A DNA stretch of 64,000 nucleotides from an uncultured Candidatus Saccharibacteria bacterium (lineage in GTDB: Bacteria; Patescibacteriota; Minisyncoccia; Phycocordibacterales; UBA12088), in assembly GCA_964411375.1 (NCBI GenBank), contig CAYPKR010000001.1:358629-422628 (forward strand), in the 5' to 3' direction. The position numbers and the translations under genes are program-made. The notes below the pieces were generated by a model, which searched no databases, was not told the origin of the DNA, and saw only the letters and a list, made by a program, of their open reading frames with translations. Positions 11,228 through 64,000 of the stretch are shown one piece after another (the first letter of the stretch is position 1; every line of letters begins with the position of its first letter).

Positions 11228-11309
11228 AGGACTTTTTTGAAATGCAAAAATAACTGCTTTCTGATGCTATCTCTTTTACCGCTCTTTGGCTACCCCGAGC
11301 TATTTCCTG

Positions 11310-11813: not shown

Positions 11814-11895
11814 GACGATTTTCAGTATACCGTGAGTCGGGGTTCATTCGAAATTCACTTTCCAAAAACGGATTGTACGGTACAATCGAAAAGTT

Positions 11896-13080
11896 ATGGC
11901 AGAAGAAAGCAAGTCTCGAATATATCTCGACCATGCCGCATCTACTCCGGTTTTGCCGGAAGTGATGGACAGGATGGCACCATATTGGAATGATGTCTTT
12001 GCGAACGCGGGAGCGATTCATTCGGATGGAGTCAAAGCAAAGCAGGCTTTGGAGGATGCACGCGAAGTATGCGCAAAATCGCTTGGGGTCAAGTCGAGCG
12101 ATATTATTTTTACTTCCGGCGGAACCGAAGGAAACAACCTTGCAATTTTCGGACTTGCAGAATCCTTGCTCGACAGCGGACTCGCCTATGGCGATATGCA
12201 TTTCATAACGGGCGCGATCGAGCACGCATCGGTGCTTGATTGTTTTAAAGTACTTGAGAAAAAAGGTGCGAGCTTTACGATCGTACCGGTTGGCGAAGAA
12301 GGACTCATCTATCCAGAAGATGTTGCCGCGGCAATCACAGAAAAGACGGTGCTTGTTTCAATAATGTATGCAAATTCCGAAATCGGCACCATCCAGCCGA
12401 TTCGTGATATTAGCGAAGCGATCAAAAAGAAAATCGCTGGATCGGCGCAGAAAATATATTTTCATACCGACGCATGCCAAGCGCCCGTGTATCTTTCGTG
12501 CCACGCAGATACACTCGGCGTTGATTTGATGACTATCGATGCACAAAAACTCTACGGACCAAAAGGATCTGGTGCGTTGTATATAAAACAGGGGACGCCG
12601 ATTGCGCCAATTATGCGTGGCGGAAACCAAGAAAGAAATTTGCGTCCCGGTACACCAGTCGTCATGCTCGCTGTGGGACTTGCAGAAGCGTTGAAAATCG
12701 CAGATCTGAATCGAACAGAAGAAAGCGAGCGTGTACTTGAACTCCGTGACTATTTTATCGATGAGGTTCTCAAAGAAATTCCAACTGCCCACGTAAATGG
12801 TTCTCGCAAAAATCGACTTCCAAACAATGCAAATTTTTCATTTCCTGGGAAGCTGGCAGAAATGATCGTGCTCGGTCTTGATCAGAAGGGAATTTCTGCA
12901 TCAACAAGAAGCGCGTGTCACATTAATGAAAAAGGCGGTTCGCATGTCGTACGCGCACTCGGACTTGGGGAAGATTATGCAACAAGCGCAGTCCGCTTCT
13001 CGCTCGGACGATCAACAACGAAAGAAATGATTGATGCGACTGTTGCAGCGCTGAAAGAGACTATTGACAAAAATAAATAA
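11896..13080 (+). CDS. cysteine desulfurase (class-V aminotransferase, IscS/NifS-like)
   Basis: 394 aa with LDHAASTP, a PLP-lysine region DAQKLYGPKGSGALYIK, and an active-site Cys loop STRSACHINEKG. Confidence 0.8.
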   Translation: MAEESKSRIYLDHAASTPVLPEVMDRMAPYWNDVFANAGAIHSDGVKAKQALEDAREVCAKSLGVKSSDIIFTSGGTEGNNLAIFGLAESLLDSGLAYGDMHFITGAIEHASVLDCFKVLEKKGASFTIVPVGEEGLIYPEDVAAAITEKTVLVSIMYANSEIGTIQPIRDISEAIKKKIAGSAQKIYFHTDACQAPVYLSCHADTLGVDLMTIDAQKLYGPKGSGALYIKQGTPIAPIMRGGNQERNLRPGTPVVMLAVGLAEALKIADLNRTEESERVLELRDYFIDEVLKEIPTAHVNGSRKNRLPNNANFSFPGKLAEMIVLGLDQKGISASTRSACHINEKGGSHVVRALGLGEDYATSAVRFSLGRSTTKEMIDATVAALKETIDKNK

Positions 13081-13103
13081 TTAGTGTAAAAAATTAGGAG
13101 CTT

Positions 13104-13490
13104 TTGGGCATGGAGCCCGTACGTAGATACGAGGAGGAATCTTCAGTGCAGACGCAAGGAACTCTCGAGAGGTGCGCAGAGAGTGCAGTTCGTCAGTTTT
13201 TGAACGATCAAGTTGGAACGCTTTTGATCGGCGTAAAGAGGAAAACGCCAATCAGTTTCATCGTCTACTGGTTTGCGAATGATCCGACAACCGGTCGCGA
13301 AGCTCGCGGTTTGGTGATGTGTGATCGAGACGGAACATACCTTCTTGTATTAAAGCGTACGTATTTTCCGGACACACGCACCTGGATACAATACGACACA
13401 GCGACAAAACAAATGTCAGCTTATACTCACGCAAGGGGTAGAATCAGCGGTGATCGCGCTTTCCAATATGCTGTATCAGCAGCGGCATGA
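13104..13490 (+). CDS. hypothetical protein
   Basis: 128-aa ORF followed by a clean terminator (13503-13538). No recognizable motif. Confidence 0.35.
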   Translation: MGMEPVRRYEEESSVQTQGTLERCAESAVRQFLNDQVGTLLIGVKRKTPISFIVYWFANDPTTGREARGLVMCDRDGTYLLVLKRTYFPDTRTWIQYDTATKQMSAYTHARGRISGDRAFQYAVSAAA

Positions 13491-13502
13491 GCCGCTCCAT
13501 TT

Positions 13503-13538
13503 CGACCAGCCGCAAGTGGCTGGTCGAATTCTTTTTTG
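13503..13538 (+). terminator. rho-independent terminator
   Basis: CGACCAGCCGCAAGTGGCTGGTCG stem-loop followed by AATTCTTTTTT. Confidence 0.6.
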
Positions 13539-13683
13539 GCTTTCTTTACGAAAGCTCTTTTTTATGATTTTATAGTGATACCAACCGCATCTCCCGAGAC
13601 GCTATCGATACGAAACCCTGAAACGCGTCCGCACGGGAGGCAGTGTTTGGTACAATATATTTTGTAACGACGATACAAAGGGC

Positions 13684-14544
13684 ATGAATCTTGAGGATTT
13701 GTCAAAAACACAGTTGGTATTACTCACCCTCTTGGTGAGTTTTATCACCTCGATCGCAACCGGTATCATGGCGGTCGCGCTTTTGACATCGCAAAATCAG
13801 CAGAGTCCGATTACGCGCACGATCAACAACGTTATCGAGCACACGATTGAAAAAGTCGTGCCGAGCGATACAAAAACAAAAGAGGCGCCTGCGGTAACGA
13901 GCCAAGATCAGATTACTAATGCGATTGCGGGGGCGAGCAAATCAATCGTTCGCATCTACACGACCCTTGATCCAACCGCATCAACCACTAACATTTCAGA
14001 AAAAGGCGTGTTCCATGGAATCGGGGTACTTGTTTCAAGTGATGGACTCTTCCTTGTTCCAGATTCACTTGCAATCAAGGGACGCACATACACAGTTGAA
14101 ACGGGAAATGGTATCCAAACTCCCGCAACGATTGTTGCAGAAGGAAGAGGGGATGTTGCGCTTATGAAGATGACTCTCGCAACTAACACACCCACTCTAT
14201 CAAGTGCAACGCTCGGCACACCAGCCTCGCTCAAACTTGGTCAGACAGTGGTTGGAGTTGGCGGAGAATCGCGCACATCGGTATCGGTCGGAACTATTTC
14301 GAGTCTCGTATCAGGAGAAGGAGATAGTATCAAAGCGATCGAAGCTGAAACTGCCGGAGTTTCCACGCTCGGAAGCGTCCTCATTTCATCTTCTGGATTG
14401 GCGCTCGGACTTTACTTACCAGATTCAAAAACATATGCGCCGATTTCTTCTGATCTGGTAAAAAGCTTGCAGAAACCCGTAACAGAAAAGCCGCAAGGAA
14501 CGTCATCACAAGCAGCGAGCGGCAGTACGGCCAACACCCCATAA
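13684..14544 (+). CDS. membrane-anchored trypsin-like (S1/HtrA-fold) domain protein, probably catalytically inactive
   Basis: 286 aa with an N-terminal TM helix and HtrA-like strands (SIVRIYTT..., GDVALMKM ~ DIALLKI) but no GNSGG/GDSG serine motif. A TGGTACAAT extended -10 sits about 30 nt upstream. Confidence 0.4.
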
Positions 14545-14564
14545 ATTCCGAATTATTTGCTTAC

Positions 14565-17270
14565 TTGTCTAAATCTACTCACATGACTCCATTCAATAAT
14601 TTCACAACCAAGGCGAAGGAAGCGGTACGAAAAGCCCACGAACTTGCTATTGAACGCGGACAAAATCACGTCAATCCGCTCCATCTTCTAACCGCACTCA
14701 TCCTGCAGGAAGAAAATACTGTCTTTTCTATACTCGAGCGACTCGACGTCGATACGGTACTTTTGACTGACACACTCCTTGAAGCACTTGAAGCGCCGGA
14801 AGGATCATCAGTGCTCTCACCTTCATATCAGCTCTACCTCACGCCAGAACTTGCACACGTACTTGAAAATTCTGCACGCATTGCGTCAGCACTTGGCGAT
14901 CAGTTTGTTTCTACCGAACATCTTTTCATCGCTATTCTTGATAATCCGGGCCCAGCGCGCGAAGTAATCGCTCGTTTCCGATTTGATCGGAATTCTGTCA
15001 TCAGAATTATTCAGGAACTCAAGGCAAACAATGTTACTGATGTCGCACAACCAAAGAAATTTAAAGCCCTCGCAAAATTTACGCGTAATCTAACGGCGCT
15101 TGCCGCTGACAACAAACTCGATCCAGTCATCGGTCGTGATGGTGAAATCACCCGCGTCATTCAGATCCTTTCTCGTCGAACCAAAAATAATCCGATTTTG
15201 ATCGGTGAGGCGGGTGTTGGAAAAACCGCAATCGCCGAAGGTCTCGCAAATCGTATCGCATCAGGTGACGCACCAGAATCGCTTCGCGGAAAGGAACTTG
15301 TTGCGCTCGACTTAGGGCTTCTCATTGCGGGTACGAAATATCGCGGCGAATTTGAAGAGCGTCTCAAAAACATTATGAAAGAAGTTGAGAAGGCGGATGG
15401 GAAAGTCATCCTCTTTATCGACGAGCTTCATACGATCGTTGGTGCGGGTGCAGCAGATGGCGCGATGGATGCGTCAAACATGCTGAAGCCAGCGCTTGCG
15501 CGCGGAGAACTTCGGGTTATCGGTGCAACGACGCTTGCTGAATATCAAAAGCACATCGAAAAAGATGCAGCGCTCACGCGTCGCTTCCAGCCGGTCATTG
15601 TAAATGAACCGTCGATCGAAGATGCGGTCGCGATTCTTCGTGGACTTCGTGAAAAGTACGAAGTCTTCCATGGCGTTCGAATTACCGATGAAGCAATCGT
15701 TGCGGCAGTTAATCTTTCTTCCCGCTATATCACTGATCGATTCTTGCCGGACAAGGCGATCGATTTGATTGACGAATCTGCGTCAGCACTCCGTATCTCG
15801 CTTGAAAATAAACCGGCGGCTCTCGAAGATGCACACCGCAAAATAATGCGCCTCGAAGTCGAGAAGGAAGCGCTTTCAAAAGACTTGGAAATTCACGAAG
15901 GTCGTGATACCAAGGCGCGCATCAAACAAATTGAAAAAGAAATCGCCGATCTTCGCGAGAAGACTGCCGACCTCGAACTTCGATGGAGCAACGAAAAGGA
16001 AGTGCTCTCTGATATCAAGGCGCTCAAAAAACAACTTGAAACGCTTCGAAATGAAGCAGAAAACGCGGAAGCAGTTGCTGATCTTTCTCGTGCTGCCGAA
16101 GTACGCTATGGAAAAATTCCGGCACTTGAGCGCGATCTCGATCAGAAGGTCAAAAAATTAAAGCGATTCCAGCAGACGCGCCGTGTGCTGAAAGAAGAGA
16201 TTATGGAAGAGGATATTGCAGCAGTTGTTGCGCGCTGGACGGGTGTTCCGGTTTCTCGAATGCTCGAAGAAGAAGCACAGAAGCTTTCTCGTATGGAAGA
16301 TTCGCTGAAAGATCGAATCGTGGGACAAGATGATGCAATTACGAAGGTTGCCGCTGCGGTGAAGCGATCTCGTGCAGGCATTGCTGATCCAAATCGTCCA
16401 ATCGGTTCGTTCCTCTTCCTCGGTCCAACGGGAGTTGGTAAAACGGAACTCTCAAAGGCGCTCGCTGAATTCATGTTTGATGACGAGAAATCGCTCATTC
16501 GAGTCGACATGTCCGAATACATGGAACGCCACGCAGTGTCCAAGCTCATCGGTGCGCCTCCAGGATATGTTGGATTTGAAGAAGGCGGATCTTTGACCGA
16601 ACTCGTTCGTCATCGTCCGTACTCGGTTTTGCTCTTCGACGAAATTGAAAAAGCGCATCCCGAAGTCTTCAACATTCTGCTTCAAGTTCTCGACAGCGGT
16701 CATTTGACCGATTCAAAGGGACGCAAAGTGAACTTCAAAAATACAATCATCATTTTGACTTCGAACATTGGTTCGCAATACATCGATCGCATGACGCAGA
16801 TCGGATTCTCGAAAGATAATGGTAACGAGGCGGTGCAGTACGAAATGACAAAGGACAAGGTGATGGATTCGCTCAAAGAATTCTTCCGCCCTGAATTCCT
16901 CAATCGTCTTGATGAAATCATCATCTTCAATATGCTCTCCGAGGACGCGATTAAGAATATTGTCGCGATGCAGGTGAAGTTGGTCGCTGATCGCTTGCTC
17001 CAAAAGGGAATCACGCTCACGCTCACTGATGCCGTCTATGCGCATCTCGCAAAAACTGGATACGATCCGCACTACGGTGCCCGTCCACTGAAGCGCTTGA
17101 TTCAAAACAAGATTTTGACCCCGGTCGCCTCGATGATGATCTCCGAAGGACTGCTTGGGGGTGGCTCGGTTGTCGTCGACATGAAGGGGACGGAATTCGC
17201 ATTCGATGTGAAGAAAAAGAAGGGAACCGTTCGTCGGGCTTCAAAGAAAGAGGAGAAGGTGTTGGTATAG
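14565..17270 (+). CDS. clpB: ATP-dependent chaperone ClpB
   Basis: 901 aa with Clp-N repeats, D1 Walker [16 protein letters not shown], a long coiled-coil M-domain, D2 Walker [16 protein letters not shown], Walker [11 protein letters not shown] and sensor GARPLKR. Confidence 0.85.
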
Positions 17271-17280
17271 TAATTTAATC

Positions 17281-17326
17281 GAGCGGAGAATCCGGTGCGA
17301 AGCGGTTCGCACCGGATTCTCCGCTC
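17281..17326. terminator. 21-bp perfect palindrome (clpB terminator)
   Basis: GAGCGGAGAATCCGGTGCGAA-GCG-GTTCGCACCGGATTCTCCGCTC. Confidence 0.6.
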
Positions 17327-17343
17327 GATTGTTGTATGAAAAC

Positions 17344-17371
17344 AAAAAATCCCTGTGAGGGGATTTTTTGG
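17344..17371. repeat. AAAAAATCCC-N6-GGGATTTTTT palindrome (family member 1)
   Basis: Perfect 10-bp stem. Same-family hairpins lie at 18243-18272 and 22570-22617. Confidence 0.6.
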
Positions 17372-17382
17372 TAAAGTTCGAA

Positions 17383-18066
17383 TTAATTTTTGGAAGATTC
17401 GGGTTTATTCGTTTTCTTCTTTTGATCAGCCATTGCCCTTACATTCTCCAGACGTTGCTGTCGTTCATAACGTGTCACATACCAATCCTCAACTAAATTC
17501 TCTATGAGACCTATAAGTAATTGCGCCTCGTTTGGATCAATTTCGATAATTACATTTACGTCCTTTTCCATGTGTGCACCGATATTCCCTACGGAACGTA
17601 CAGCGTCAATAGCGTCCCAAGTATCAATATTCACCTGATCTTTTATGGCTTCAATCTCATTTTTTAACATTCCTGATTCTACTTTCCAGAAATCTCGAAT
17701 CATTCCTTGCAGAGCACGCCTAGCAAGGGTAGCCGAAGCTTTCGGACTTAGATCTCTAATTCTGCAGGCTTCGTAGTAATCCTCTTTGATAGCAACTGGT
17801 ATGTATTCTGGCAATACTTTGGCCGAAGACTCTGGAAGCAGTTGCCAGGTTTGAGTAGTAGGCCCCTCTTCCCCCTGCACTAATCTTGTGAGTCTCGTTT
17901 TTAAATAAAGCTCGTGGCACATAGGATTGGGACATCGTACAGCAAAAAAACCAACGCCCACAGCACCCTTTTTCGTAGCATTGATATAGACACTTCTCCA
18001 GTGATTAAAGCTGTCATTTCCCACAATGGTGGAGTGGTGACCACAGTATGGACATGTGTAATTCAT
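17383..18066 (-). CDS. Zn-ribbon + DUF4145 domain protein (defence-island-associated family)
   Basis: N-terminal CPYCGHH...CPNPMC ribbon and C-terminal ...AVRSVGNIGAHMEKDVNVIIEIDPNEAQLLIGLIENLVEDWYV, matching the R-x2-GN-x-GAH core of DUF4145. The start is taken at ATG 18066 (GAGGG RBS), because the upstream GTG-extended frame to 18207 overlaps the tRNA-Tyr-associated hairpin region. Confidence 0.5.
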   Translation of the reverse strand: MNYTCPYCGHHSTIVGNDSFNHWRSVYINATKKGAVGVGFFAVRCPNPMCHELYLKTRLTRLVQGEEGPTTQTWQLLPESSAKVLPEYIPVAIKEDYYEACRIRDLSPKASATLARRALQGMIRDFWKVESGMLKNEIEAIKDQVNIDTWDAIDAVRSVGNIGAHMEKDVNVIIEIDPNEAQLLIGLIENLVEDWYVTRYERQQRLENVRAMADQKKKTNKPESSKN

Positions 18067-18191
18067 AATACCCTCAATATATTCCTCTCTTCTTTGTATG
18101 TCCAAAATATTTTGAGAGGGAGTTTCGACCCCTACAGGGTCAGTCCAGGTTGTATGATCTTTTCTTCCTTCGGTCGAAAAGCTCGACAACC

Positions 18192-18242
18192 TTTTCGAAT
18201 CCCTCACGAAAGTTCCCCCGGAGCTTTCTCTGTGCCACCAAA
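18192..18242 (+). ncRNA. inverted pseudo-copy of the tRNA-Tyr 3' half with a CCC-triloop hairpin insert
   Basis: TTCGAATCCCTC is a plus-orientation copy of the tRNA-Tyr T-loop/T-stem, followed by the GAAAGTTCC-CCC-GGAGCTTTC hairpin and GTGCCACCA, which resembles the acceptor 3'-CCA. Confidence 0.45.
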
Positions 18243-18272
18243 CAAAAAATCCCTTTCAAGGGATTTTTTGTT
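18243..18272. repeat. CAAACAAAAAATCCC-TTTCAA-GGGATTTTTTGTTTG perfect palindrome abutting the tRNA-Tyr 3' CCA
   Basis: 15-bp perfect stem ending 1 nt before the tRNA-Tyr 3' end. Confidence 0.6.
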
Positions 18273-18358
18273 TGGTGCGCCGGGAGGGATTCGAACCCCC
18301 GTAGGCATAAGCCGCTTGGTTTACAGCCAAGTGCGATTGACCACTCCGCCACCGACGC
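18273..18358 (-). tRNA. tRNA-Tyr (anticodon GTA), long variable arm, CCA encoded
   Basis: The reverse complement folds with acceptor GCGTCGG/CCGGCGC (a G-U pair), anticodon stem CTTGG/CCAAG with loop CTGTAAA, a long variable arm, T-arm GGGGG-TTCGAAT-CCCTC and ACCA. Confidence 0.75.
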
Positions 18359-18408
18359 GTTCCCACAAATTATCACGCTCCCTAGAATCTGGGAAGGAGT
18401 GGTGAATA

Positions 18409-18924
18409 TTACTTACAAATCGACGTTGAAGAGGCTATATGTCCCACGGTCGAACTTGAGGTTCCTACAATGCAGATGATACCTCTGCCAAATGCCCCGC
18501 TGCCCACTTCGAGAAATGCAAGAACAGAATAATCATCTGTCTTCGGAGAACTGCCTCCGCCGCTTGAAGAAATGCCATATTGGCACACGCCTGTTGAAGA
18601 TAGAGTACAAACTGTTGTTCCGTTCGGATCCTTAAATTTGGAGAGTTGGGTCATATCAATTCCATTTATTGTTCCCGTGCACGAATTTATATTCGAGCTT
18701 GCCGCGGTACAGCCTTGAAGCGCTGGACCCGTAGCTCCGGTTGCGAGATTGAGTACGCGCCCAATCTGTTCAAGATCAGAAATACGTTGGGCATCACGCG
18801 CCTTGGTCCTGGCGCTATTCAAGGATGCAAGAACAACTGATGAGAGAATGCCGATGATTGCGATGACCACGAGAAGTTCGATAAGCGTGAATCCATAACT
18901 CCTCCTTATTTGGGGGCTGCTCAT
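18409..18924 (-). CDS. type IV pilin / pseudopilin (class III signal peptide)
   Basis: N-terminus MSSPQIRRSYG|FTLIELLVVIAIIGIL with the prepilin-peptidase site G-F and a Glu at +5. The remainder is Ser/Thr/Gly-rich with 6 Cys. Confidence 0.7.
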   Translation of the reverse strand: MSSPQIRRSYGFTLIELLVVIAIIGILSSVVLASLNSARTKARDAQRISDLEQIGRVLNLATGATGPALQGCTAASSNINSCTGTINGIDMTQLSKFKDPNGTTVCTLSSTGVCQYGISSSGGGSSPKTDDYSVLAFLEVGSGAFGRGIICIVGTSSSTVGHIASSTSICK

Positions 18925-55167: not shown

Positions 55168-56334
55168 CTATATTGTTTCGCCGCGCGTCTCCGAACTACT
55201 CGAAAAATCAACCGATATCTCACTCTTGAGTTCAGATTTCTCCTCGGAGGTAGAGGGTTCCATAACGGGAGTGCCGCTTGGCAAATATACGGATACTGTT
55301 GTACCTTGTCGGAGCGCGCTTCTGATAGTGATTCGTCCATGATGTACGCGGACAATTTCATTCACGATCGTGAGCCCAAGTCCGCTTCCGGCTCGACGCA
55401 CGCGACGCACTCTCGAAGTGTCTGCGCGATAAAACGGTTCAAAAATATGGAAGAGATCTTCCTGAGAAATACCGATACCGGTGTCTGCAACCGAGAAGAG
55501 AACGCGGTTACGATCATTTCGCTCTAATAGAACAGTGACGACACCGCCAGAATCGCGTGGAGTATAGCTGATCGCATTTTTAATCACGTTCATAACGACT
55601 TGTTCGAGTGCAGTTGCGTTGCCCCACACGGTGCGGTACGTATCCATTTTGACAACTATTTTGACATTTCGTTCTTCTGCGAATGAACGAAGCCTCCGCA
55701 CCGTATCTTCAACAATCACTCCAAGATCAGTATCCTGAAATTGGATTCGCTCGGGTCTTGTGAACATGTCGAGCGAAAGCAAGTTGTTGATAATCGAAGA
55801 AATGCGATCAAGCTCATCAACGGTGCTGTGGAATACTTTTTTTATTGATGGATCGAGTTCGGGATCGAGGAGTGCGACCTCACTTGATGTCTTGATCGTT
55901 GAAAGCGGTGTGCGAAGTTCGTGCGCGATATTACTGATGAAGAGTTTCTGATAGCGAAGCGTGTCGCGTGCGGGGCGAAGTGTAAAGCGCGCAACCAATA
56001 TCCCGAATCCAATTGCGATCAATATGACACCGCCAAATATATACCAGATGCTTTTTTCTTGGATTCCACTAATCGACTTGGCAAGCTCTTCGGGTGTTTG
56101 CAGTGGTGCATTTGTGAGGATCGCACGGATATTTTCGACGACGAACATCGCAATCGCGTGGTTGTTGTATTCAAGCACCATGCCGAAGGCGATGATGAGA
56201 ATCAAAACCATTCCTGCTTGGAGCAGAATGACGTGCGTTGTTGTTCGGAAAAAGAGATCGCTACGATACTTCTCCCGTAATCCGGTAGCCCACTCCGCGA
56301 ACTGTTTCAAATAACGTTTCGCCATCTTTTCCAT
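55168..56334 (-). CDS. sensor histidine kinase
   Basis: 2 TM helices, H-box NIAHELRTPLSTI and HATPase N/G boxes. Confidence 0.8.
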   Translation of the reverse strand: MEKMAKRYLKQFAEWATGLREKYRSDLFFRTTTHVILLQAGMVLILIIAFGMVLEYNNHAIAMFVVENIRAILTNAPLQTPEELAKSISGIQEKSIWYIFGGVILIAIGFGILVARFTLRPARDTLRYQKLFISNIAHELRTPLSTIKTSSEVALLDPELDPSIKKVFHSTVDELDRISSIINNLLSLDMFTRPERIQFQDTDLGVIVEDTVRRLRSFAEERNVKIVVKMDTYRTVWGNATALEQVVMNVIKNAISYTPRDSGGVVTVLLERNDRNRVLFSVADTGIGISQEDLFHIFEPFYRADTSRVRRVRRAGSGLGLTIVNEIVRVHHGRITIRSALRQGTTVSVYLPSGTPVMEPSTSEEKSELKSEISVDFSSSSETRGETI

Positions 56335-56947
56335 TTTCGAGTTTTTTACGAAGATTTTTCATGTGCACGTCAAGTACGTTGGACCACCGAAGGGCATTGA
56401 AATCCCAGACTCGGTCGAAGAGCGTTTCGCGAGATAATACCACTCCTGGTTCCTTGAGGAAACATTCAAGCAGCGCGAATTCTTTGAGCGTGAGTGGCAC
56501 CTCGTCGCCATCCTTTCTGACAGTTCTGGTTGCCACATCCATTTCAATCACACCAACTTTGAGCACAATCGGTTCTGAAGTCTTGGGACGACGAAGCACC
56601 GAATTGATGCGCGCCACTACTTCCTCGAATGAGAAGGGTTTGACGATATAATCGTCGGCGCCTTTATTCAAGACTTCGATTTTATGTTCGGTTTCGTTTC
56701 GTGCGGTCAAGACGATGATTGGTGTCGTAACCCCTTCTTTTCGAACCGTTTCGGTAATGGTCGCTCCATCCATGCCGGGGAGCATAAGGTCGAGTAAGAT
56801 AAGGTCGTATTCTTTTTGGTAGAGTATAATTCGTTTGCAGGCTTTCTCGGAATCGGAGAGCCAATCTACCGCAAATCCTTCAAGTTCAAGTCCTTTTTTA
56901 AGAGCTTTTGCTAGTTTTTCCTCATCTTCAACTATTAGCAGTCGCAT
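56261..56947 (-). CDS. OmpR-family response regulator
   Basis: Receiver domain (LLIVEDE..., LDLMLPGMDG) plus a winged-helix C-terminus (LTLKEFALLECFL). Confidence 0.8.
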   Translation of the reverse strand: MRLLIVEDEEKLAKALKKGLELEGFAVDWLSDSEKACKRIILYQKEYDLILLDLMLPGMDGATITETVRKEGVTTPIIVLTARNETEHKIEVLNKGADDYIVKPFSFEEVVARINSVLRRPKTSEPIVLKVGVIEMDVATRTVRKDGDEVPLTLKEFALLECFLKEPGVVLSRETLFDRVWDFNALRWSNVLDVHMKNLRKKLENGKDGETLFETVRGVGYRITGEVS

Positions 56948-57209: not shown

Positions 57210-57638
57210 ATGGAAACCTTTCTTTTTTATGCACATCTCACGTCGCTCGCGGTTGCTGCCGTCGGAGTTTTCTATGCAGATTCGCTCGCGATGAAATGGA
57301 CCCGAGGAAAATCTGCCACCCTTGAACTTCGACACTTGAACTTCGCACATCTCATCGTTTCATTCGCACTTCTCTCACTCGTCATCACCGGCGGATTCTT
57401 ATTTTGGCCAATGCGAAGTTATTTGCTCTTTTATCCGCCATTCTTGCTCAAAATGGCGTTCGTCCTTGTACTTATATTGAATTCTTTTGCGATCGACACA
57501 TTCATGCATGTCGCGCGTGCGAGATCGTTTGATTCGCTTTCTCCCAAAGAAAAATTGCCGCTCTTTATCAGCGGTGCTCTTTCAACACTTTGTTGGTTTG
57601 GCGCGGGTATCACTGCACTCGTGATTTTTGGAATCTAA
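57210..57638 (+). CDS. polytopic membrane protein, hypothetical
   Basis: 142 aa with 4 TM helices. Confidence 0.4.
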   Translation: METFLFYAHLTSLAVAAVGVFYADSLAMKWTRGKSATLELRHLNFAHLIVSFALLSLVITGGFLFWPMRSYLLFYPPFLLKMAFVLVLILNSFAIDTFMHVARARSFDSLSPKEKLPLFISGALSTLCWFGAGITALVIFGI

Positions 57639-57642
57639 TTCC

Positions 57643-57882
57643 ATGTACTTCGTGTATATACTCGAGTGCAAAGATCGTACGCTGTATACAGGAATCACGA
57701 CTGACGTCACCCGTCGATTTTCTGAGCACAAAGCAGGAAAGGGCGGACATTACACCAGAGCACACCCACCGAAGAAAATGCTCTATGTCGAAGACGCGGC
57801 AAACAGAAGTACAGCCTCAAAGCGCGAAGCAGAAATCAAACGCATGACTCGGAGGGAGAAATTGCTCCTGGTGCGTAGATAA
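57643..57882 (+). CDS. GIY-YIG nuclease-domain protein (UPF0213/YhbQ-like)
   Basis: MYFVYILECKDRTLYTGITTDVTRRFSEH: GIY-YIG with conserved R and E. Confidence 0.65.
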   Translation: MYFVYILECKDRTLYTGITTDVTRRFSEHKAGKGGHYTRAHPPKKMLYVEDAANRSTASKREAEIKRMTRREKLLLVRR

Positions 57883-57991: not shown

Positions 57992-58603
57992 ATGTTGTTG
58001 CCAACAAAATATTCGTTTCGATTGATATCCTCACGGAAGTATGAGGAGAATTTGGCTACCACGATTCCACCGATTACTAAGAATGTTTCTCAAGAGGATA
58101 TTGATGATGGTAAGCGAGTATTTTTGAAACTCGCGGGAATGGTTGGACTTGGCGTTGTTGCTTCGCAAGTATTTTCAAATAAAGCAGAAGCGTACGTCAT
58201 GGGAAGCGCACCGACCTCGGGAGTTGTCGGAGTAAAAAATTCCTCGAACACGCGCATTAATCCGGCAACGGATGAAAGTCTCACCTCGCTCTTAACCGGT
58301 CAAGGGGTTACGAAGCTTACGACAAATCTTACTGCTTCGGGCACGGTACGTACGCCAACGAGCGGCAAAAAAATTCGAGTCTACGCGACTCGCTTTTCTC
58401 TGACTGCTGACATGACCAGCGTCTCATTCCGATTCACCTCGGGAGGCACTGATTATGAAAAGTTTCTTGCGCCAAAAACCGGAGGACTCTACGGATCAAA
58501 CAATCATCCGAATTATGTCGAAGGTGGCGTCGATCAAGTATTGTACTGTGCAATTTCAGGAACCGGCACAGTACAAATTAATGTTGATTATCTCGAAGTA
58601 TAA
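57992..58603 (+). CDS. exported protein with Tat-type (KR-variant) signal peptide
   Basis: DDGKRVFLKLAGMVGLGVVASQVFSNKAEA|Y: the Tat motif (S/T-R-R-x-F-L-K) appears as KRVFLK with an h-region and an AxA site. The mature part is Ser/Thr/Gly-rich and beta-rich. Confidence 0.45.
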   Translation: MLLPTKYSFRLISSRKYEENLATTIPPITKNVSQEDIDDGKRVFLKLAGMVGLGVVASQVFSNKAEAYVMGSAPTSGVVGVKNSSNTRINPATDESLTSLLTGQGVTKLTTNLTASGTVRTPTSGKKIRVYATRFSLTADMTSVSFRFTSGGTDYEKFLAPKTGGLYGSNNHPNYVEGGVDQVLYCAISGTGTVQINVDYLEV

Positions 58604-58619
58604 TCGCTAGCAGATTTCC

Positions 58620-59054
58620 ATGCGTGATTCGATCAATCTCCGCGGCGCACTTCATATCGAACTTCGAAATAAAGAAGGAGATCTTGTGAGTGATATCAAG
58701 GTGCCAAATACAATTACCGATTTGGGCAAAGCATACATTGCTGATCGCTTGGGCTCACAGACACAAACAGCAATGAGTAATATGGCAATCGGAACAGGAA
58801 CGCCCTCCACGACAACGCTCGGCACTGAACTTGCAAGACGAAATTTTCGAACCCCTACATCAAGTAGTGCAACGTGGACGTATGTTGCGGAGTGGAATAT
58901 TGATGACAATGTTTCTGGAACAATAACCGAAGCAGGAATTTTTAATTCTGACCTGGCAAATAGCGGCACGATGCTCTGCTCATCTTCTTTTACGGGAATC
59001 GTAAAAGCAGTGAATGACACGCTGACCATAACGTGGACGATAACAATTTCATAA
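58620..59054 (+). CDS. hypothetical beta-rich protein
   Basis: 144 aa ending ...LTITWTITIS. Confidence 0.35.
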   Translation: MRDSINLRGALHIELRNKEGDLVSDIKVPNTITDLGKAYIADRLGSQTQTAMSNMAIGTGTPSTTTLGTELARRNFRTPTSSSATWTYVAEWNIDDNVSGTITEAGIFNSDLANSGTMLCSSSFTGIVKAVNDTLTITWTITIS

Positions 59055-59800
59055 TGCCTCCAACTGAAAACAGACGAAGAGACAGGAAGCAAGATGGATC
59101 AGATGGTCCTGAATTTTCTCTCGGTGAAAATTTGATTCTTCGAAGACTTCGGTGGGGAAGTCTTGGCCCTCGCGCGCTTCGGTCGATGGATGCAGTTGCT
59201 GACGATTCTCTCGTTGATGAAAGTCTGGCACTTGCGAGACATATGCAGTCAATGATTGCTGACAAAATCGAGATTGCATCTGCCGGCGCACACCCGCTCG
59301 TAAATCAGGGAATGCAAATAGCGAAGCAAATTGTTGCTGACATTTTTAATGAAAAATCTGATGAGGAAGTTCCGCCAGAGCCAGCACCAGCGGATCAGGT
59401 ACCGGTAGAAACTCCGCCGCCAGAAGAAGTTCCTCCAGAAGAACCGATACAAACAGAAACTGAAACAACAACGCCAGAACAAATTCCTGCCGAAGAAGAA
59501 AGTCCAGTTGAGGAATCGAAGGTTCCGGAACCTGAGATACAAGAAACTCCACCGGTAGAAGATACAGCAAGTTCAACTCCTAAAGTGGAGATTCCCGAAT
59601 CTGCTCCAGAGACAAATTCAACGACGACTGATGAAAATGGTGTCGAGTTAGATACTGAATATAATCCAGTCACGGAAGACTCGCCGCCAGCGCTTTCACC
59701 TCAAGCAGAAGGGAACGCAAGTACGACTTCACCCGCTCCAAATGTTCAGAAAGCGGAATCCACCACATCAAATCCGTCAGAGCCTGTTGAAGACGAGTAG
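59033..59800 (+). CDS. highly acidic Pro/Glu/Thr-rich (disordered) protein
   Basis: 255 aa. The C-terminal 150 aa is PE-repeat-like, reminiscent of scaffold/spacer proteins. Confidence 0.4.
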   Translation: MDDNNFIMPPTENRRRDRKQDGSDGPEFSLGENLILRRLRWGSLGPRALRSMDAVADDSLVDESLALARHMQSMIADKIEIASAGAHPLVNQGMQIAKQIVADIFNEKSDEEVPPEPAPADQVPVETPPPEEVPPEEPIQTETETTTPEQIPAEEESPVEESKVPEPEIQETPPVEDTASSTPKVEIPESAPETNSTTTDENGVELDTEYNPVTEDSPPALSPQAEGNASTTSPAPNVQKAESTTSNPSEPVEDE

Positions 59801-59842
59801 TGCCCTCATGGTATTCTAATAAGTAATTAATTTTTTTAAGAT

Positions 59843-60646
59843 ATGGCCATAACGACACTCGACGGAGCACTCGCGGGAATGCAACCCCCGGTTGAATTTT
59901 CAAAATCGCTCACCGGTACCATGGTTGCTGGTCGTGCGCACTCACTCTTTTATCTTTCAGGTATTCCTGGCGCTGCAGTCGCTCCGTCTCCCGGTATCGG
60001 TGGGGCAGTACTCACTAGTTATTCCGGACAGTTACCATTTACGAATCCAGGTGCAGGAAATAGTTATCTTGCACGTTTTTGTGCACAAGCAACGATCGCA
60101 GGGACACTTCTTCTTTGCGATCGACTCTGGCACAACAGCGGTATCAACATTACAGCAACCAGCGAACAGACATTTACCAGTTCTGCACAAATCCCTACAC
60201 GCGATAATACTGGCACCAACAATGGCGTTGGAGTGTATGCAGGAGTAGAAGTATCAAGTGCGACTGGTTCTGGTACTCCGACTCTGACACTCAAATATAC
60301 AAATTCTTCCGGTACTCAAAATCAAACGGCAACCAACACGGTCGCAACCGTTGCGTCATCGATTGCAGGAACGTTTCATACTATTGGTCTTGCGGCGGGG
60401 GATGTTGGAATTCAAAAAGCCCAATCGCTGACGCTCTCTGCTACATGGACTTCGGGCACGATTCATGTCGTTCTCTACCGCGTACTTGCCCGAATGGAGC
60501 TTGGTCCCCAAATTCCAAACGCAATGGATCTTTTGACCGCCGGATTTACTCGCATGTACGACAACACGGTTCCATTCCTCGTATTTATTCCAAACACCAC
60601 GACGACTTCAAACATTTCAGGAAATGTAATCTGGACGCAAGGCTAA
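59843..60646 (+). CDS. hypothetical 267-aa protein, paralog 1
   Basis: About 60% identical to the next gene (MAITT..., LPFTNP, CDRLWHNSG, NNGVGVYAGVEV, TLKYTNSSGT, VLYRV). Confidence 0.45.
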   Translation: MAITTLDGALAGMQPPVEFSKSLTGTMVAGRAHSLFYLSGIPGAAVAPSPGIGGAVLTSYSGQLPFTNPGAGNSYLARFCAQATIAGTLLLCDRLWHNSGINITATSEQTFTSSAQIPTRDNTGTNNGVGVYAGVEVSSATGSGTPTLTLKYTNSSGTQNQTATNTVATVASSIAGTFHTIGLAAGDVGIQKAQSLTLSATWTSGTIHVVLYRVLARMELGPQIPNAMDLLTAGFTRMYDNTVPFLVFIPNTTTTSNISGNVIWTQG

Positions 60647-60653
60647 TTTTTGT

Positions 60654-61463
60654 ATGGCTATTACAACAATAAGCGGTGCGGTCAGCAGCATGATGCAGCC
60701 GATTGATTTTGTTAAGCAAGCGACTGGTACCTTGGTAGGCGGTCGCCCGATATCGCTATTTTATTTAGCTGGTACTCCTGCTGCTGCAACCGCTCCTTCT
60801 CCCGGAATCGATGGAGCAGCGCTTACTACGTACACGGGTCAATTGCCATTCACGAATCCCTTGAGTGGAAATACATACTTGGCACGAATGCAGGCACAAG
60901 CATCAATTCCAGGCACCCTTATGTTATGCGACCGACTCTGGCATAACAGCGGATATAACGTAACCTTAACCACGGAACAAACAAGTAATGCCGCGCAAAT
61001 CCCTGCACGCGACAATAATGGAACTAACAACGGAGTTGGAGTGTACGCCGGTGTGGAAGTTGCAACGGCACTTGGAAACGGTACGCCGACGTTCACACTT
61101 AAATATACAAATTCATCGGGAACCGCGGGACAAACCGCAACCAATACGATTGCGACTGCAAACGGTCCCGTTGCCGGCACCTTTTTTCCAATCGGTCTTG
61201 CAAACGGAGATGTGGGAATCCAAAAAGTTGAATCACTCACACTTTCTGCAACGTATACGTCGGGCAAGATTGGAGTCGTGTTGTACCGAGTCATTGCGCG
61301 ACTTGAAATTGGGGTAACAGGCGGAATCATGACGAATGCGATTGATGCAGTGACTGCCGGTTTTCCGCGCCTCTATGATAACAGCGTACCGTTTCTCATT
61401 TTTAATCCGAACGGTGTCAACTCAACAAATATCAATGGACACATTATCCTCTCGCAAGGATAA
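60654..61463 (+). CDS. hypothetical 269-aa protein, paralog 2
   Basis: A tandem paralog of 59843. Confidence 0.45.
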   Translation: MAITTISGAVSSMMQPIDFVKQATGTLVGGRPISLFYLAGTPAAATAPSPGIDGAALTTYTGQLPFTNPLSGNTYLARMQAQASIPGTLMLCDRLWHNSGYNVTLTTEQTSNAAQIPARDNNGTNNGVGVYAGVEVATALGNGTPTFTLKYTNSSGTAGQTATNTIATANGPVAGTFFPIGLANGDVGIQKVESLTLSATYTSGKIGVVLYRVIARLEIGVTGGIMTNAIDAVTAGFPRLYDNSVPFLIFNPNGVNSTNINGHIILSQG

Positions 61464-61472
61464 TAGAAATAT

Positions 61473-61706
61473 ATGGCACAAGTAGGACGAGCAAATTTTA
61501 CATCCGCATTTGGAATGAAACACCGAAAGACGGATCGTTTTGCGCTGATGCGTGATACGTGTTCTGAGTCAGATAACAAACCAAATATCTGGAAGACGTG
61601 GTGGCTTGATGATATCTCCGTCTCTGCAACCACAAAAACACTTACGGATACTCTCTCCGGAAGTGGTGGTGGATCATCCGGCAATATTTTCATAATGTCT
61701 GAGTGA
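61473..61706 (+). CDS. small hypothetical protein
   Basis: 77 aa. It overlaps the tatC start by 4 nt. Confidence 0.3.
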   Translation: MAQVGRANFTSAFGMKHRKTDRFALMRDTCSESDNKPNIWKTWWLDDISVSATTKTLTDTLSGSGGGSSGNIFIMSE

Positions 61707-62440
61707 GCATGGATTCTCTGACGGCGTTTACGGAAAAATACGGCACCTATCTTGAAGATGTCCGTGTTCGAGTGTACCGACTGGTAGTTATTTTTGCGAT
61801 TACTTTCGTGGTCGGATTTTTTTCGACCTCATGGCTCGTTAAAATATTGGTTGATGTTTGGAAAATAGAAAATGTAACGATTGTTGCGACTTCGCCGTTT
61901 CAGTTGGTTGATCTTGCGGTATCGATCGGATTTTTTCTTGCGATAATTGTCATTTTACCTCTCAGTGTACGAGAGATGTATGCGTTTCTCCGCACCGGTC
62001 TCCTCAAGCGTGAGCGGCGCCTATTTCTTTCGCTCCTTCCGGTCGCATTTCTATTGTTTGTTATTGGTTTTGCGTATGGAGTTGCGGTCATGTATTTTGC
62101 GCTCCAGGTCATTGCACAAGTGAATGTTTCTTTAGGTGTTGCTAATTTGTGGGACATCACTCGATTTGTATCCCAAATAATGATTACTTCGGCACTCCTT
62201 GGCGTTGTATTTGAATTTCCGGTAGTACTAACTTTTTTGATTCGACTTGGGATCGTGCCAATTTCATTCCTAACTCGGAAGCGTCGCCATGCGATCGTAG
62301 TTATCCTCATTTTAGTTGCGCTTCTGCCTCCAACAGACGGAATATCCTTTATAATAATGTCAGTGCCGCTCATCGGTATTTATGAGCTGACTATCTTTTT
62401 TAATTCTTTTAAGAAGCGTGGTCGAAATTTACCAGTATAA
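61703..62440 (+). CDS. tatC: twin-arginine translocase subunit TatC
   Basis: 245 aa with 6 TM helices in TatC topology and conserved FFSTSWLV..., PFQLVDLAVSIGFF and LPPTDG motifs. Confidence 0.7.
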   Translation: MSMDSLTAFTEKYGTYLEDVRVRVYRLVVIFAITFVVGFFSTSWLVKILVDVWKIENVTIVATSPFQLVDLAVSIGFFLAIIVILPLSVREMYAFLRTGLLKRERRLFLSLLPVAFLLFVIGFAYGVAVMYFALQVIAQVNVSLGVANLWDITRFVSQIMITSALLGVVFEFPVVLTFLIRLGIVPISFLTRKRRHAIVVILILVALLPPTDGISFIIMSVPLIGIYELTIFFNSFKKRGRNLPV

Positions 62441-62455
62441 AAAGGAGAGCAAAAT

Positions 62456-62626
62456 ATGTTTGGACTAGGAACTCGAGAAATAATCATCATTGGTGTTGTC
62501 GCCGTATTGCTGTTTGGATCAAGCCGCATACCTGCGCTTACGAAGAGTATTGTTGATGCAATTCGTACACTTCGTGGAGCATTCAAAGAGGAGGAAATAG
62601 TGTCGTCGAAAAAAGTTATTAAATAA
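62456..62626 (+). CDS. tatA: twin-arginine translocase TatA/E-family subunit
   Basis: MFGLGTREIIIIGVVAVLLFGSSRIPALTKSIVDAIRTLRGAF: TM helix + FG hinge + amphipathic helix. AAAGGAGAG RBS. Confidence 0.7.
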   Translation: MFGLGTREIIIIGVVAVLLFGSSRIPALTKSIVDAIRTLRGAFKEEEIVSSKKVIK

Positions 62627-62636
62627 AGAGTATTCT

Positions 62637-62801
62637 ATGGATATTGGAGTGAAGGAAATAGCAATTATCGCAGTCGTGATGGTGGTCCTCTTTGGATCAA
62701 GTCGTATCCCAGAATTTGCAAAAAACATTGTTGAAGCGATGCGCAATGTTCGCAATGCATTTTCTGGTAAAGAAACGGTTGCAGTAAGCAAACGCCGCTA
62801 A
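62637..62801 (+). CDS. second TatA/TatB-family subunit
   Basis: MDIGVKEIAIIAVVMVVLFGSSRIPEFAKNIVEAMRNVRNAF. Confidence 0.65.
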   Translation: MDIGVKEIAIIAVVMVVLFGSSRIPEFAKNIVEAMRNVRNAFSGKETVAVSKRR

Positions 62802-62832: not shown

Positions 62833-64000
62833 ATGAACATAATCGGCGACCCTAAGCTAGGTATATTCAGGGCGTGCCTTGGTATATTTTTTATTAGTGG
62901 GATTCTATTCCACGCTTCTCCTCTATTTGCCGATAGTTATCCAACGTATGCTCCAGGCGTTCAGATCACTATCGGAGAATTTGTATATAACGACGATTTT
63001 TCTCCGAGCACCGATGATTGCACGATAACTGTTTATAATCCATCGGGAACAACAGTGGTGAGTGCAGTCACCATGACTGCAAATGCAAACGGATGGCATT
63101 ACTATGCTTTTACTCCTTCAAGTATTGAGGGAACATGGCCCGCCTTCATTTCGTGCGGCTCAACTCTTACCGGAGATTTGATAAAGGAAGACAAGACATT
63201 TCAAATTAGTTCATATGTCGTTTCCTCGACGACCGTTGCCTCCCTCGTAAACGCAAACACCAACTCAGTCGTCACTTCCGCTTCTTCTTCGCTCCCTGCA
63301 ACGGTGTGGAATTACACATCGCGTACACTTTCATCGTTCGGCACGCTCGCGACTGATGTATGGAGCGCGACGACTCGGCTACTCACGGGCGCAAGTATTA
63401 CTGGCGGTTCACTCGCGACACTTTCTGATGTTCAAAACGCTACTTCATCGATTGCCTCTGCAATTACTACCGCTTCAAGTTCGGTCGCGAATAGTGTGAA
63501 TGGAAATACTAATTCGCAAACGAGCGGTATTACATCGGCGGTTAACTCACATACTGATTCAGCACTGAATACCGCAACTTCTTCTATCCAATCGGCAATT
63601 ACGACCGCCTCATCGTCCGTTGCAAATTCAGTAAATGCAAACACCAACACGGTTGTTGGAAATGCTTCCTCCTCATTGTTTGCGATGCTTCCGTCAGCAA
63701 TCTGGTCCTATAGCGCACGCACCCTTACTTCATTCGGAACATTGGCAACTGATGTGTGGAGCGCAACCACACGCCTCCTCACGGGTGCCGGTATAACCGG
63801 AGGTTCTCTCGCAACACTCTCTGACGTAAATTCAGCCTCGAGCTCAATTCAATCTGCAATCACAACCGCGTCATCGTCCGTTGCAAATTCAATTAATGGC
63901 AACACAAACTCGCAGACTTCGGGAATTACTTCAGCCGTAAACGCACACACTGATTCTGCACTCGCAACCGCAACCTCATCGGTCGCAGCAGTTGTAAATG
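62833..64000 (+). CDS. large secreted Ser/Thr/Ala/Asn-rich repeat protein (3' end beyond window)
   Basis: Signal peptide MNIIGDPKLGIFRACLGIFFISGILFHASPLFA. Repeats of about 123 aa (...TVWNYTSRTLSSFGTLATDVWSATTRLLTGA.ITGGSLATLSDV...SSVANSVNGNTNSQTSGITSAVN.HTDSAL...) occur at least 2.5 times. The frame is open to the window end. Confidence 0.55.
   Translation, partial: MNIIGDPKLGIFRACLGIFFISGILFHASPLFADSYPTYAPGVQITIGEFVYNDDFSPSTDDCTITVYNPSGTTVVSAVTMTANANGWHYYAFTPSSIEGTWPAFISCGSTLTGDLIKEDKTFQISSYVVSSTTVASLVNANTNSVVTSASSSLPATVWNYTSRTLSSFGTLATDVWSATTRLLTGASITGGSLATLSDVQNATSSIASAITTASSSVANSVNGNTNSQTSGITSAVNSHTDSALNTATSSIQSAITTASSSVANSVNANTNTVVGNASSSLFAMLPSAIWSYSARTLTSFGTLATDVWSATTRLLTGAGITGGSLATLSDVNSASSSIQSAITTASSSVANSINGNTNSQTSGITSAVNAHTDSALATATSSVAAVVN

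Follow-up and report, generated by a model that had tools for sequence, protein, structure and literature searches.

A conserved operon of Patescibacteria links predicted TatAC translocase genes to a twin-arginine-type signal protein and to variable signal-less proteins, suggesting display of a phage-like binding structure

The Bacillus subtilis operon phoD-tatAd-tatCd ties a TatAC translocase, of the route for twin-arginine translocation (Tat), to one substrate, and Tat also co-exports signal-less partners, as in HybO-HybC and DmsA-DmsB. Phage tails have been put to use by cells as well: in tailocins and extracellular contractile injection systems the whole tail is kept, and is released by lysis or by dedicated machinery. 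Bacteria of the Paceibacteria type largely lack the redox enzymes usually served by Tat. Here we analyze a stretch of 64,000 nucleotides, hereafter the window, from an uncultured Candidatus Saccharibacteria bacterium (GTDB lineage Bacteria; Patescibacteriota; Minisyncoccia; Phycocordibacterales; UBA12088; GenBank assembly GCA_964411375.1, contig CAYPKR010000001.1, positions 358,629 to 422,628 of the forward strand). From position 57992 to the end of the window, ten tightly packed plus-strand open reading frames (ORFs) form an operon in which the gene for a protein with a predicted Tat-type signal peptide, p1, precedes tatC and two tatA genes, with genes for five signal-less proteins (p2, p3, the paralogs p4 and p5, and p5b) in between and a surface-protein gene, dsP, at the end. 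Tat genes have been recorded in Paceibacteria with no cargo being proposed for them (PMC9166423), and PaoABC is a three-subunit case of Tat hitchhiking (PMC4273604). No description of this operon or of the p1 or p4 family, and no proposal of a Tat cargo in Paceibacteria, was found in the literature that we consulted, in which journal coverage was partial.

Comparison with related loci showed that, judging by the predicted proteins, this is a conserved operon coupling TatAC to a single protein that bears a Tat-type signal, and to signal-less proteins that differ between loci; its constant parts are p1, tatC, one or two copies of tatA and an adjoining surface protein with a predicted Sec signal. 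The p1 family, apparently confined to Patescibacteria, comprises 571 proteins, and a pattern scan of species-representative genomes placed p1 in 73 loci, mostly with Patescibacteria-type labels (seven records were labelled 'Gammaproteobacteria' and one 'uncultured bacterium'). Where at least 9.9 kb was available downstream of p1, tatC was present in 46 of 46 loci, on the same strand and either 2.8-4.1 kb or about 9 kb downstream. Over the whole set it was found in 55 of 73, and most of the 18 loci without it are cut by a contig end about 1-4 kb from p1. Two multi-paralog variants without tatC (L006 and L009; L and P numbers designate the loci and contigs compared) also stop before the expected position of that gene. 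The converse test was done with four TatC homologues on long contigs, and a p1-like gene was located 4-5 kb upstream in all four. The p1-like proteins of these TatC-found loci share KYSFRL, KRxFLK and an early mature part, VGVKNxxNxRINPATE, and have a different C-terminal domain, which in this more distant Parcubacteria clade contains repeated NPAT[ED] motifs. Since the linkage of p1 to Tat recurs in each related locus with enough flanking sequence, comparative evidence indicates that the gene arrangement is not due to chance. An earlier reading of the window from its letters only (the sequence-only reading) had seen a cluster centred on Tat, with a translocase that might be devoted to it. Both ideas agree with the p1-tatC linkage seen from either side and with the conserved signal of p1, and Tat is probably dedicated to the cargo of the operon.

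The p1 gene (57992..58603, plus strand) encodes 203 amino acids (aa). Its product contains KYSFRL near its start and, at residues 41-46, KRVFLK, followed by LAGMVGLGVVASQVF and by AEA at 65-67. Residues 1-67 (57992..58192, plus strand) were read from the sequence as a predicted Tat-type signal peptide with cleavage after AEA, and the mean hydropathy of LAGMVGLGVVASQVF, its h-region, is 1.1-1.7, moderate as in Tat signals. All of the 120 best p1 homologues have [K/R]-R-x-F-[LIVM] and then a hydrophobic stretch (KR in 111, RR in nine), 114 of them have A-x-A within 32 residues past the motif, and D38, R42, F44 and A67 are invariant across a 36-member alignment. By these features the N-terminus of p1 has the form expected for a Tat signal, in its KR variant. 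Such a variant had been noticed by the sequence-only reading, which would have abandoned its interpretation had the motif been lost in orthologs; the second Arg and the Phe are kept in 120/120. In a crude scan of the window no ORF other than p1 had a Tat-like signal. The p1 homologues also share x-x-P-x-K-[YH]-S-F-[RK]-[LF] at their extreme N-terminus (residues 1-36 in the window, 57992-58100), about 35 residues ahead of KR/RR and with a variable spacer between the two. This n-region is unusually long and conserved for a signal peptide, and could be a putative chaperone-binding site.

After the signal, p1 has a conserved unstructured stretch, VGVKNSSNTRINPATDE, and then an eight-stranded jelly-roll domain at about 103-203. 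The predicted fold is a plain jelly roll, with a predicted local distance difference test (pLDDT) score of about 64-90 in the C-domain, and its matches are generic only, among them the turret protein of Sulfolobus turreted icosahedral virus (STIV), Ena pilus subunits, nucleoplasmin and phage cement proteins. A search of the PDB with the p1 profile found nothing, and hhalign detected no homology between p1 and a 142-aa ORF located upstream of the phage module of contig L001, which is described below. Pfam and NCBIfam scans placed none of the proteins p1 to p5b in any family, redox-cofactor families (molybdopterin, Fe-S, copper or haem) included, in agreement with the absence of such motifs to the eye of the sequence-only reading.

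The Tat genes themselves are readily recognized. The tatC gene (61703..62440, plus strand, with its start at GTG 61703 or ATG 61709) encodes a protein matching PF00902 with 136.6 bits (E 1.3e-39, cut-off 25.1) over profile positions 2-208 of 208; on TIGR00945 it reaches 113.7 bits, under the equivalog cut-off of 132.7, which marks it as a divergent member. Its nearest relatives are the TatC proteins of Parcubacteria and Nomurabacteria. The two tatA copies (62456..62626, 56 aa, and 62637..62801, 54 aa, both on the plus strand) score 41.7 and 45.5 bits on PF02416, whose cut-off is 21. Both score better on the TatA/E than on the TatB model and, being divergent too, remain under the cut-offs of these models (43.1 bits against 53.9 on TIGR01411 for copy 1), and no additional gene of the TatA/B family was seen in the operon. 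The Pfam scores, well above their cut-offs, thus uphold the complete translocase, TatC plus two TatA-family proteins, that had been claimed before.

What varies between loci is the content of the slot between p1 and tatC, which could be read in 43 loci. In 42 of them it holds a protein of 541-1072 aa (at least 707 aa in all but one), a second one of about 150-300 aa whose ordered N-domain is followed by an acidic tail rich in Pro and Thr, and an acidic protein of 55-63 aa. The big slot protein lacks a signal peptide and is built of repeats of about 75 residues, which match the N-terminal part of phrog_1591 (4e-17) and phrog_1980 (3e-11), annotated as 'tail fiber protein'. Slot proteins lacked a signal in all of the 43 loci examined. 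Some loci have three tandem paralogs of the big protein, of about 800-950 aa each (L025 at 10625-18554, and also L033, L076 and L006). These triplets parallel the p4/p5 duplication of the window, and tandem multiplication of slot genes seems to be recurrent. Apart from the window, a single genome, GCA_017991895.1 (L003, L056), was found to have the set p2-p3-p4-p5-p5b; no p4-type Tat locus was present among 80 viral loci, 80 metagenome loci and the P0003 and P0005 contigs, and none of these viral and metagenome loci carries p1, p3, tatC or tatA. In the distant clade found through TatC, other large signal-less proteins (888-1187 aa) occupy the slot, and no similarity of these to either the first kind or PHROGs could be detected. 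There the protein preceding tatC (L159 9118-9978, L160 9130-9996, L161 9110-9970 and L162 9048-9944) has no signal peptide and combines a coiled-coil N-terminus, a Glucosaminidase (peptidoglycan hydrolase) domain (31.7 bits, cut-off 30.2) and a Pro-rich acidic tail. A shared ancestry of the slot contents was considered and set aside: hhalign comparisons of the big slot protein with p2 or p4 gave only low-complexity matches, and the contents were treated as non-homologous or too diverged for a judgement.

In the window, most of the slot is of phage type. The p2 protein (58620..59054, plus strand, 144 aa, no signal peptide) resembles the N-terminal domain of phage tail fibres: it matches phrog_5417, a family of unassigned function, over its full length (E 2e-21), and more weakly phrog_4176, 'tail fiber protein' (E 4e-4), and PF12571 (14.8 bits, E 0.028, under the cut-off of 23). 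It is 54% identical to the ORF that, on the phage-like contig L001, lies immediately upstream of a p4 homologue, and 39% identical to an ORF of Synechococcus phage BUCT-ZZ01 located two genes upstream of the annotated tail fibre gene. The paralogs p4 (59843..60646, plus strand, 267 aa) and p5 (60654..61463, plus strand, 269 aa) are 66% identical (E 3e-123), which confirms the pair of signal-less proteins of about 268 aa described before; p4 is a large jelly roll of a phage tail-module family. For that family, p4 has 2372 word-indexed homologues and 2271 clusters at 50% identity, and there are members on at least 160 IMG/VR contigs, many of the carrier contigs being 37-45 kb long; p4 itself matched no Pfam or PHROG model. 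Tandem pairs of the family occur in 14 of the 80 viral loci. In structural comparisons, p4 matches entries of BFVD with template modelling (TM) scores of up to 0.89. Sequence searches of the PDB with p4 and p2 gave no meaningful match.

The surroundings of p4 homologues place the family in the tail region. The siphovirus-like L089 has, in this order, a major tail protein, tail chaperones, a 2039-aa tape measure, four small ORFs, p4 and a 1742-aa protein, and podovirus MW202795 has an unannotated p4 homologue (35% identity) in the interval from its capsid gene to its tail-fibre gene. L001 carries RusA, a DnaB-like ATPase, an HNH gene and many small ORFs, and L002 carries Gp80 and a 1678-aa Laminin_G_3 protein. 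Separate capsid genes accompany p4 homologues in MW202795 and, as Phage_capsid_4, in L243. Given this gene position and the separate capsid genes, p4 is, by genomic context, a protein of a tail or adsorption module and not a capsid protein. The idea that the paralogs form a capsid or an encapsulin, including one of two single-jelly-roll capsid proteins, was rejected on the same grounds and for lack of any match to a capsid or encapsulin family. Two phage-like contigs resemble the window in module order: L001 has a p2-like gene (54% identity), p4 (78%) and a p5b-like gene (40%), and P0003 has ORFs of 142, 278, 269 and 71 aa, the same layout as p2, p4, p5 and p5b. Since the orders match, the p2-p4-p5-p5b module was most likely captured as a block. 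The sequence-only reading had supposed a surface assembly specific to this lineage, with the paralog pair as one of its features. That the paralogs and p2 are inventions of the lineage is not supported, as p4 and p2 belong to large phage families and a tandem pair followed by a small ORF already exists on phage-like contigs; taken as a whole, that reading stands in its Tat-centred frame, its probably dedicated translocase and a cargo unlike a cofactor enzyme, and has to be amended in that the paralogs are phage-derived.

Some further observations were made on the phage contigs. An ORF of about 135 aa (MAIQFSVAVRNARLDAIETAIG...) precedes p4 in most of them (L079-L158), and the 125-150-aa ORFs upstream of p4 in viral loci form a largest similarity cluster of 31 out of 52; by eye their pattern resembles tail-fibre N-terminal domains, and hhalign with the single p2 sequence was negative. 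The closest full p2-p4-p5b module is that of L001/L079 (IMG/VR UViG_3300029288_000026, 44.6 kb), which in GenBank is binned as 'Candidatus Paceibacterota' and where small ORFs for membrane and Cys-rich proteins, reminiscent of a lysis cassette, come after the module. The p4-bearing contigs of 37-45 kb may represent a phage family infecting these bacteria.

The slot of the window also holds p3 and p5b. The acidic p3 (59054..59800, plus strand, no signal peptide) consists of an N-terminal domain of about 106 aa and a 142-aa tail with 30 Glu, 29 Pro and 19 Thr, and the isoelectric point (pI) of the whole protein is 4.09. The Pro/Glu-rich composition noted previously is therefore confirmed; the length of 255 aa given with it corresponds to GTG 59033, and ATG 59054, in a TAATG overlap and giving 248 aa, is the likelier start. 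Searches of Pfam, PHROG and NCBIfam returned no family for p3, and the only homologue found is that of L003, 36% identical over the N-domain. Proteins built in the same way, with an ordered N-domain and an acidic Pro/Thr-rich tail, fill the corresponding slot elsewhere. The small p5b (61473..61706, plus strand, 77 aa), which lies between p5 and tatC in a position also occupied by its homologues elsewhere, has a body homologous to the small ORF found after p4 on phage contigs, as shown by a BLAST match to a 74-aa ORF of L001 (E 2e-9); it also matches a 73-aa ORF of L003 (E 6e-11). Its C-terminus is of another kind. Among the operon small proteins (acidic, 55-63 aa, directly before tatC, L008-L078), 38 of 41 end in [IV]FIMSE, and hhalign aligned p5b with this family at 93.8% probability over the final 11 residues only. 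The p5b protein ends in GNIFIMSE, the L003 copy in GNIFILAD, and the phage copies have unrelated ends. Synonymous sites of the FIMSE codons vary freely among the 38 loci, and selection therefore acts on the peptide. With a phage-type body yet an operon-type C-terminus, p5b indicates at the sequence level that the captured module has been fitted to the operon. We know of no described motif resembling IFIMSE, which may be a putative docking peptide for TatC or p1.

With p5b the layout of the operon is also corrected. The eight genes listed by the sequence-only reading are all on the plus strand at the positions assigned to them; the operon has ten, p5b having been overlooked and dsP following the second tatA. 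The intergenic distances are, in order, 16, -1, 42, 7, 9, -4, 15, 10 and 31 nucleotides (nt), so that the 'several' 4-nt overlaps reported before are reduced to one, that of p5b with the GTG start of tatC. The large surface protein dsP (62833..64000, plus strand, running past the window end) combines a signal of the Sec type with an N-domain of about 200 aa that is conserved and with repeats rich in Ser, Thr, Ala and Asn, with three copies of a 69-nt unit. In 55 of the 73 loci a dsP homologue adjoins the operon, located after tatA or, in divergent orientation, before p1, and that of L003 (6571-8238, minus strand) ends in a type I dockerin (Dockerin_1, 34.8 bits, cut-off 22.9). Two more proteins, of about 290 and 570 aa, are encoded in 48 and 47 of the 73 loci, usually after dsP, so that in the present case they would fall outside the window; in L003 both show, by eye, a signal-like stretch at the N-terminus and a hydrophobic one close to the C-terminus. 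Cohesin domains were suspected by eye in these two proteins and were unsupported by Pfam.

On the upstream flank there are genes for a polysaccharide deacetylase, a family 2 glycosyltransferase (GT2), a UDP-glucose dehydrogenase, a histidine kinase, a response regulator, a membrane protein and a GIY-YIG protein. The last two are directly upstream of the operon (57210-57882), where the ORF of the 142-aa membrane protein, which has no family match, overlaps the 84-aa GIY-YIG ORF (PF01541, 62 bits) by 11 nt. The histidine kinase/response regulator pair is found beside the operon in the window (55168-56947, minus strand) and in at least two other loci, L003 (295-1501) and L159 (17617-20323), on differing sides, and may regulate it. 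Seven tRNA genes are dispersed across the window, whose contig is 514 kb long, and the nearest relatives of every protein are in Patescibacteria assemblies of the Paceibacteria/Parcubacteria type. Neither scan for transcription signals helped to define the transcript: promoter-like sites were fewer than in shuffled sequence, and terminator-like sites fell mostly within genes.

These data suggest that Tat is used to place a phage-like binding structure on the cell's own surface. The reading that we prefer, with a probability of roughly one half, is that the dedicated TatAC exports a folded, phage-derived surface assembly to which p1 supplies the signal. Like phage fibres, the phage-type proteins would fold and form oligomers while still in the cytoplasm, and Tat would carry them folded across the membrane with p1 as the only signal peptide, in a hitchhiker type of co-export. 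The small protein could be an adaptor whose body binds the cargo and whose C-terminal IFIMSE binds p1 or TatC, and the acidic protein could be an assembly factor or a linker spanning the wall. Once on the surface, the complex would act as a binding structure, for instance in attachment to host cells, displayed alongside the neighbouring Sec-exported proteins. The phage-fibre nature of the slot proteins, the peptidoglycan-hydrolase-like domain, the Pro/Thr/Glu-rich tails and the surface-protein neighbours would all favour an extracellular role. A more tentative generalization, which we hold to be possible and still rather doubtful, is that members of the Candidate Phyla Radiation (CPR) of the Paceibacteria type keep Tat as the dedicated exporter of a modular surface organelle, made of constant p1 and TatAC, a distal cassette that can be swapped, phage tail-fibre or receptor-binding modules included, and an IFIMSE adaptor.

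Several points weigh against export of the assembly. That p2, p3, p4 and p5 are exported and joined with p1 is something that we infer, and the jelly roll of p1 keeps 60-78% identity irrespective of which of the two, big protein or phage module, occupies the slot. This argues mildly against a direct and specific p1-cargo interface, which should change together with the cargo; the adaptor is proposed as a way round this missing co-variation. Compared with the consensus S/T-R-R-x-F-L-K, the signal itself is G-K-R-V-F-L-K in the window, with KR and not RR, and scores 13.8 bits on TIGR01409, against a cut-off of 16.7; natural Tat signals with KR are known. All hitchhiker cargos known to us are cofactor enzymes, and slot proteins of 700-1070 aa would, if trimeric, to our knowledge exceed the size of any Tat cargo. 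In addition, p4 lacks a named homologue and resembles in fold only jelly rolls of a generic kind, and no homology of p3 to the proteins in the corresponding slot of other loci was detected with hhalign.

Some of these points could also be accounted for if p1 were the sole Tat substrate and p2 to p5b remained in the cytoplasm, as chaperones or regulators of p1 or in a separate, co-transcribed role. This is the main rival, and we regard it as unlikely, though less so than any of the others. It agrees with p1 alone having a signal and with the conservation of its mature domain whatever fills the slot, as expected if p1 acts by itself. It makes it hard to explain why more than 50 species should retain one to three very large tail-fibre-like proteins, or a phage tail module, between p1 and tatC, when the known function of such phage proteins lies outside cells, and it leaves a peptidoglycan-hydrolase-like domain, which needs access to the cell wall, in the cytoplasm of the distant clade; the adjoining genes, too, encode surface proteins. 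Less credible, and clearly improbable, is a self-assembling envelope structure in place of a discrete adhesin, either a surface-layer (S-layer)-like lattice or a jelly-roll fibre of p1 with p4/p5, in which the paralogs would provide surface variation. The jelly rolls p1 and p4 each have an N-terminal extension that is conserved, and slot proteins, which have a high content of Thr, Ser, Gly and Ala, often occur as tandem paralogs, a combination typical of S-layer genes. The fold matches of these proteins are, however, generic and come without sequence signal, polymerisation is a supposition, and non-homologous slot contents in different clades fit a swappable tip or adhesin better than an essential lattice.

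Two other readings start from the relationship with phages. The cell might produce tail or receptor-binding copies as decoys or blockers against infection, given that the module is shared with phages binned with Paceibacteria genomes and that slot content turns over between lineages, as is common in defence loci. We give this very little weight: p1 to p5b match no PADLOC model (a weak LeoB match, E 1e-4, is confined to the dsP repeats), the operon has no nuclease, ATPase or other effector gene, and a constant link to Tat and to a surface protein is a feature of no defence system that we know of. Least probable of all is that p2 to p5b are a decaying fragment of an integrated phage that ended up by chance between p1 and tatC. 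The identities of p4 (78%) and p2 (54%) to genes in the same order on L001, and the tandem pair plus small ORF of a phage-like contig, would be compatible with it, and the sequence-only reading had indeed taken clear homology to phage capsid or tail proteins as the sign of a prophage remnant. The tail homology is there and that conclusion does not follow from it, as the flanks are cellular: no integrase, terminase, portal, capsid or tail tube gene was found flanking the cluster. All ORFs are intact and tightly packed, the same arrangement, p3 and Tat genes included, recurs in a second genome between other neighbours, the module takes up precisely the position that varies in a conserved operon, and p5b has gained the operon-specific C-terminal motif. 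The prophage-remnant reading can thus be considered largely refuted already, and it ranks, like the lattice and the defence role, below export of p1 alone.

Export of a phage-derived assembly by its own TatAC would have consequences beyond this locus. For the question of what Tat does in Paceibacteria, the operon provides a specific answer that can be tested, and it points to a candidate surface structure in a group in which host attachment is central yet poorly understood. If the signal-less phage-type proteins are co-exported, the cargo known for Tat would come to include binding assemblies that are folded and of viral origin, a new class that is phage-derived, oligomeric and cofactor-free. 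Episymbionts would have a new route to acquire and vary attachment structures, through direct reuse of phage adsorption modules by the cells that those phages probably infect. Even if p1 alone is exported, several unannotated families have been defined here (those of p1, 571 members, of p4, over 2000 clusters, of the big slot protein and of the IFIMSE peptide).

With respect to known systems, p2 is related to the PF12571 (P2 gpH) fibres by its weak match and by the location of its phage relatives, near tail-fibre genes or upstream of p4 homologues; unlike those fibres, it is a stand-alone protein of 144 aa, under the Pfam cut-off and within a cellular Tat operon. XepA of the Bacillus subtilis element PBSX (PDB 6i56; PMC6834076) shares 13% identity with p4 over less than half of its length, a resemblance of fold and not of family, with no relationship detected by sequence, and many unrelated jelly rolls (ligands of the tumour necrosis factor (TNF) type, phage cement proteins, fibre knobs and carbohydrate-binding modules) score nearly alike. 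As in tailocins, proteins of phage-tail origin would serve a cell in its interactions with the outside; unlike in tailocins, only two or three small tail-module proteins are involved, and they are linked to Tat. The closest mechanistic precedent is given by the Tat hitchhikers, in which one subunit bears the signal and signal-less partners are encoded alongside. Those are cofactor redox enzymes whose complexes have been demonstrated, whereas here no cofactor family was detected, the partners are of phage-tail type and the complex is a proposed one. The closest genetic precedent is phoD-tatAd-tatCd, which likewise has TatA and TatC only, with no TatB, in the same operon as a protein with a twin-arginine-type signal, and which implies that the translocase is dedicated to the linked cargo. 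PhoD, however, is a single enzyme with its own RR signal, while in the operon described here the signal protein is a small jelly roll, mostly with KR, large signal-less proteins intervene, and the linkage extends across the Patescibacteria loci sampled (73 species-representative genomes, in each locus with enough flanking sequence) instead of one species. A substrate-linked TatAC is therefore not new in itself; what sets this operon apart is an unusual cargo exchanged with phages, together with a putative adaptor motif that had previously gone unnoted.

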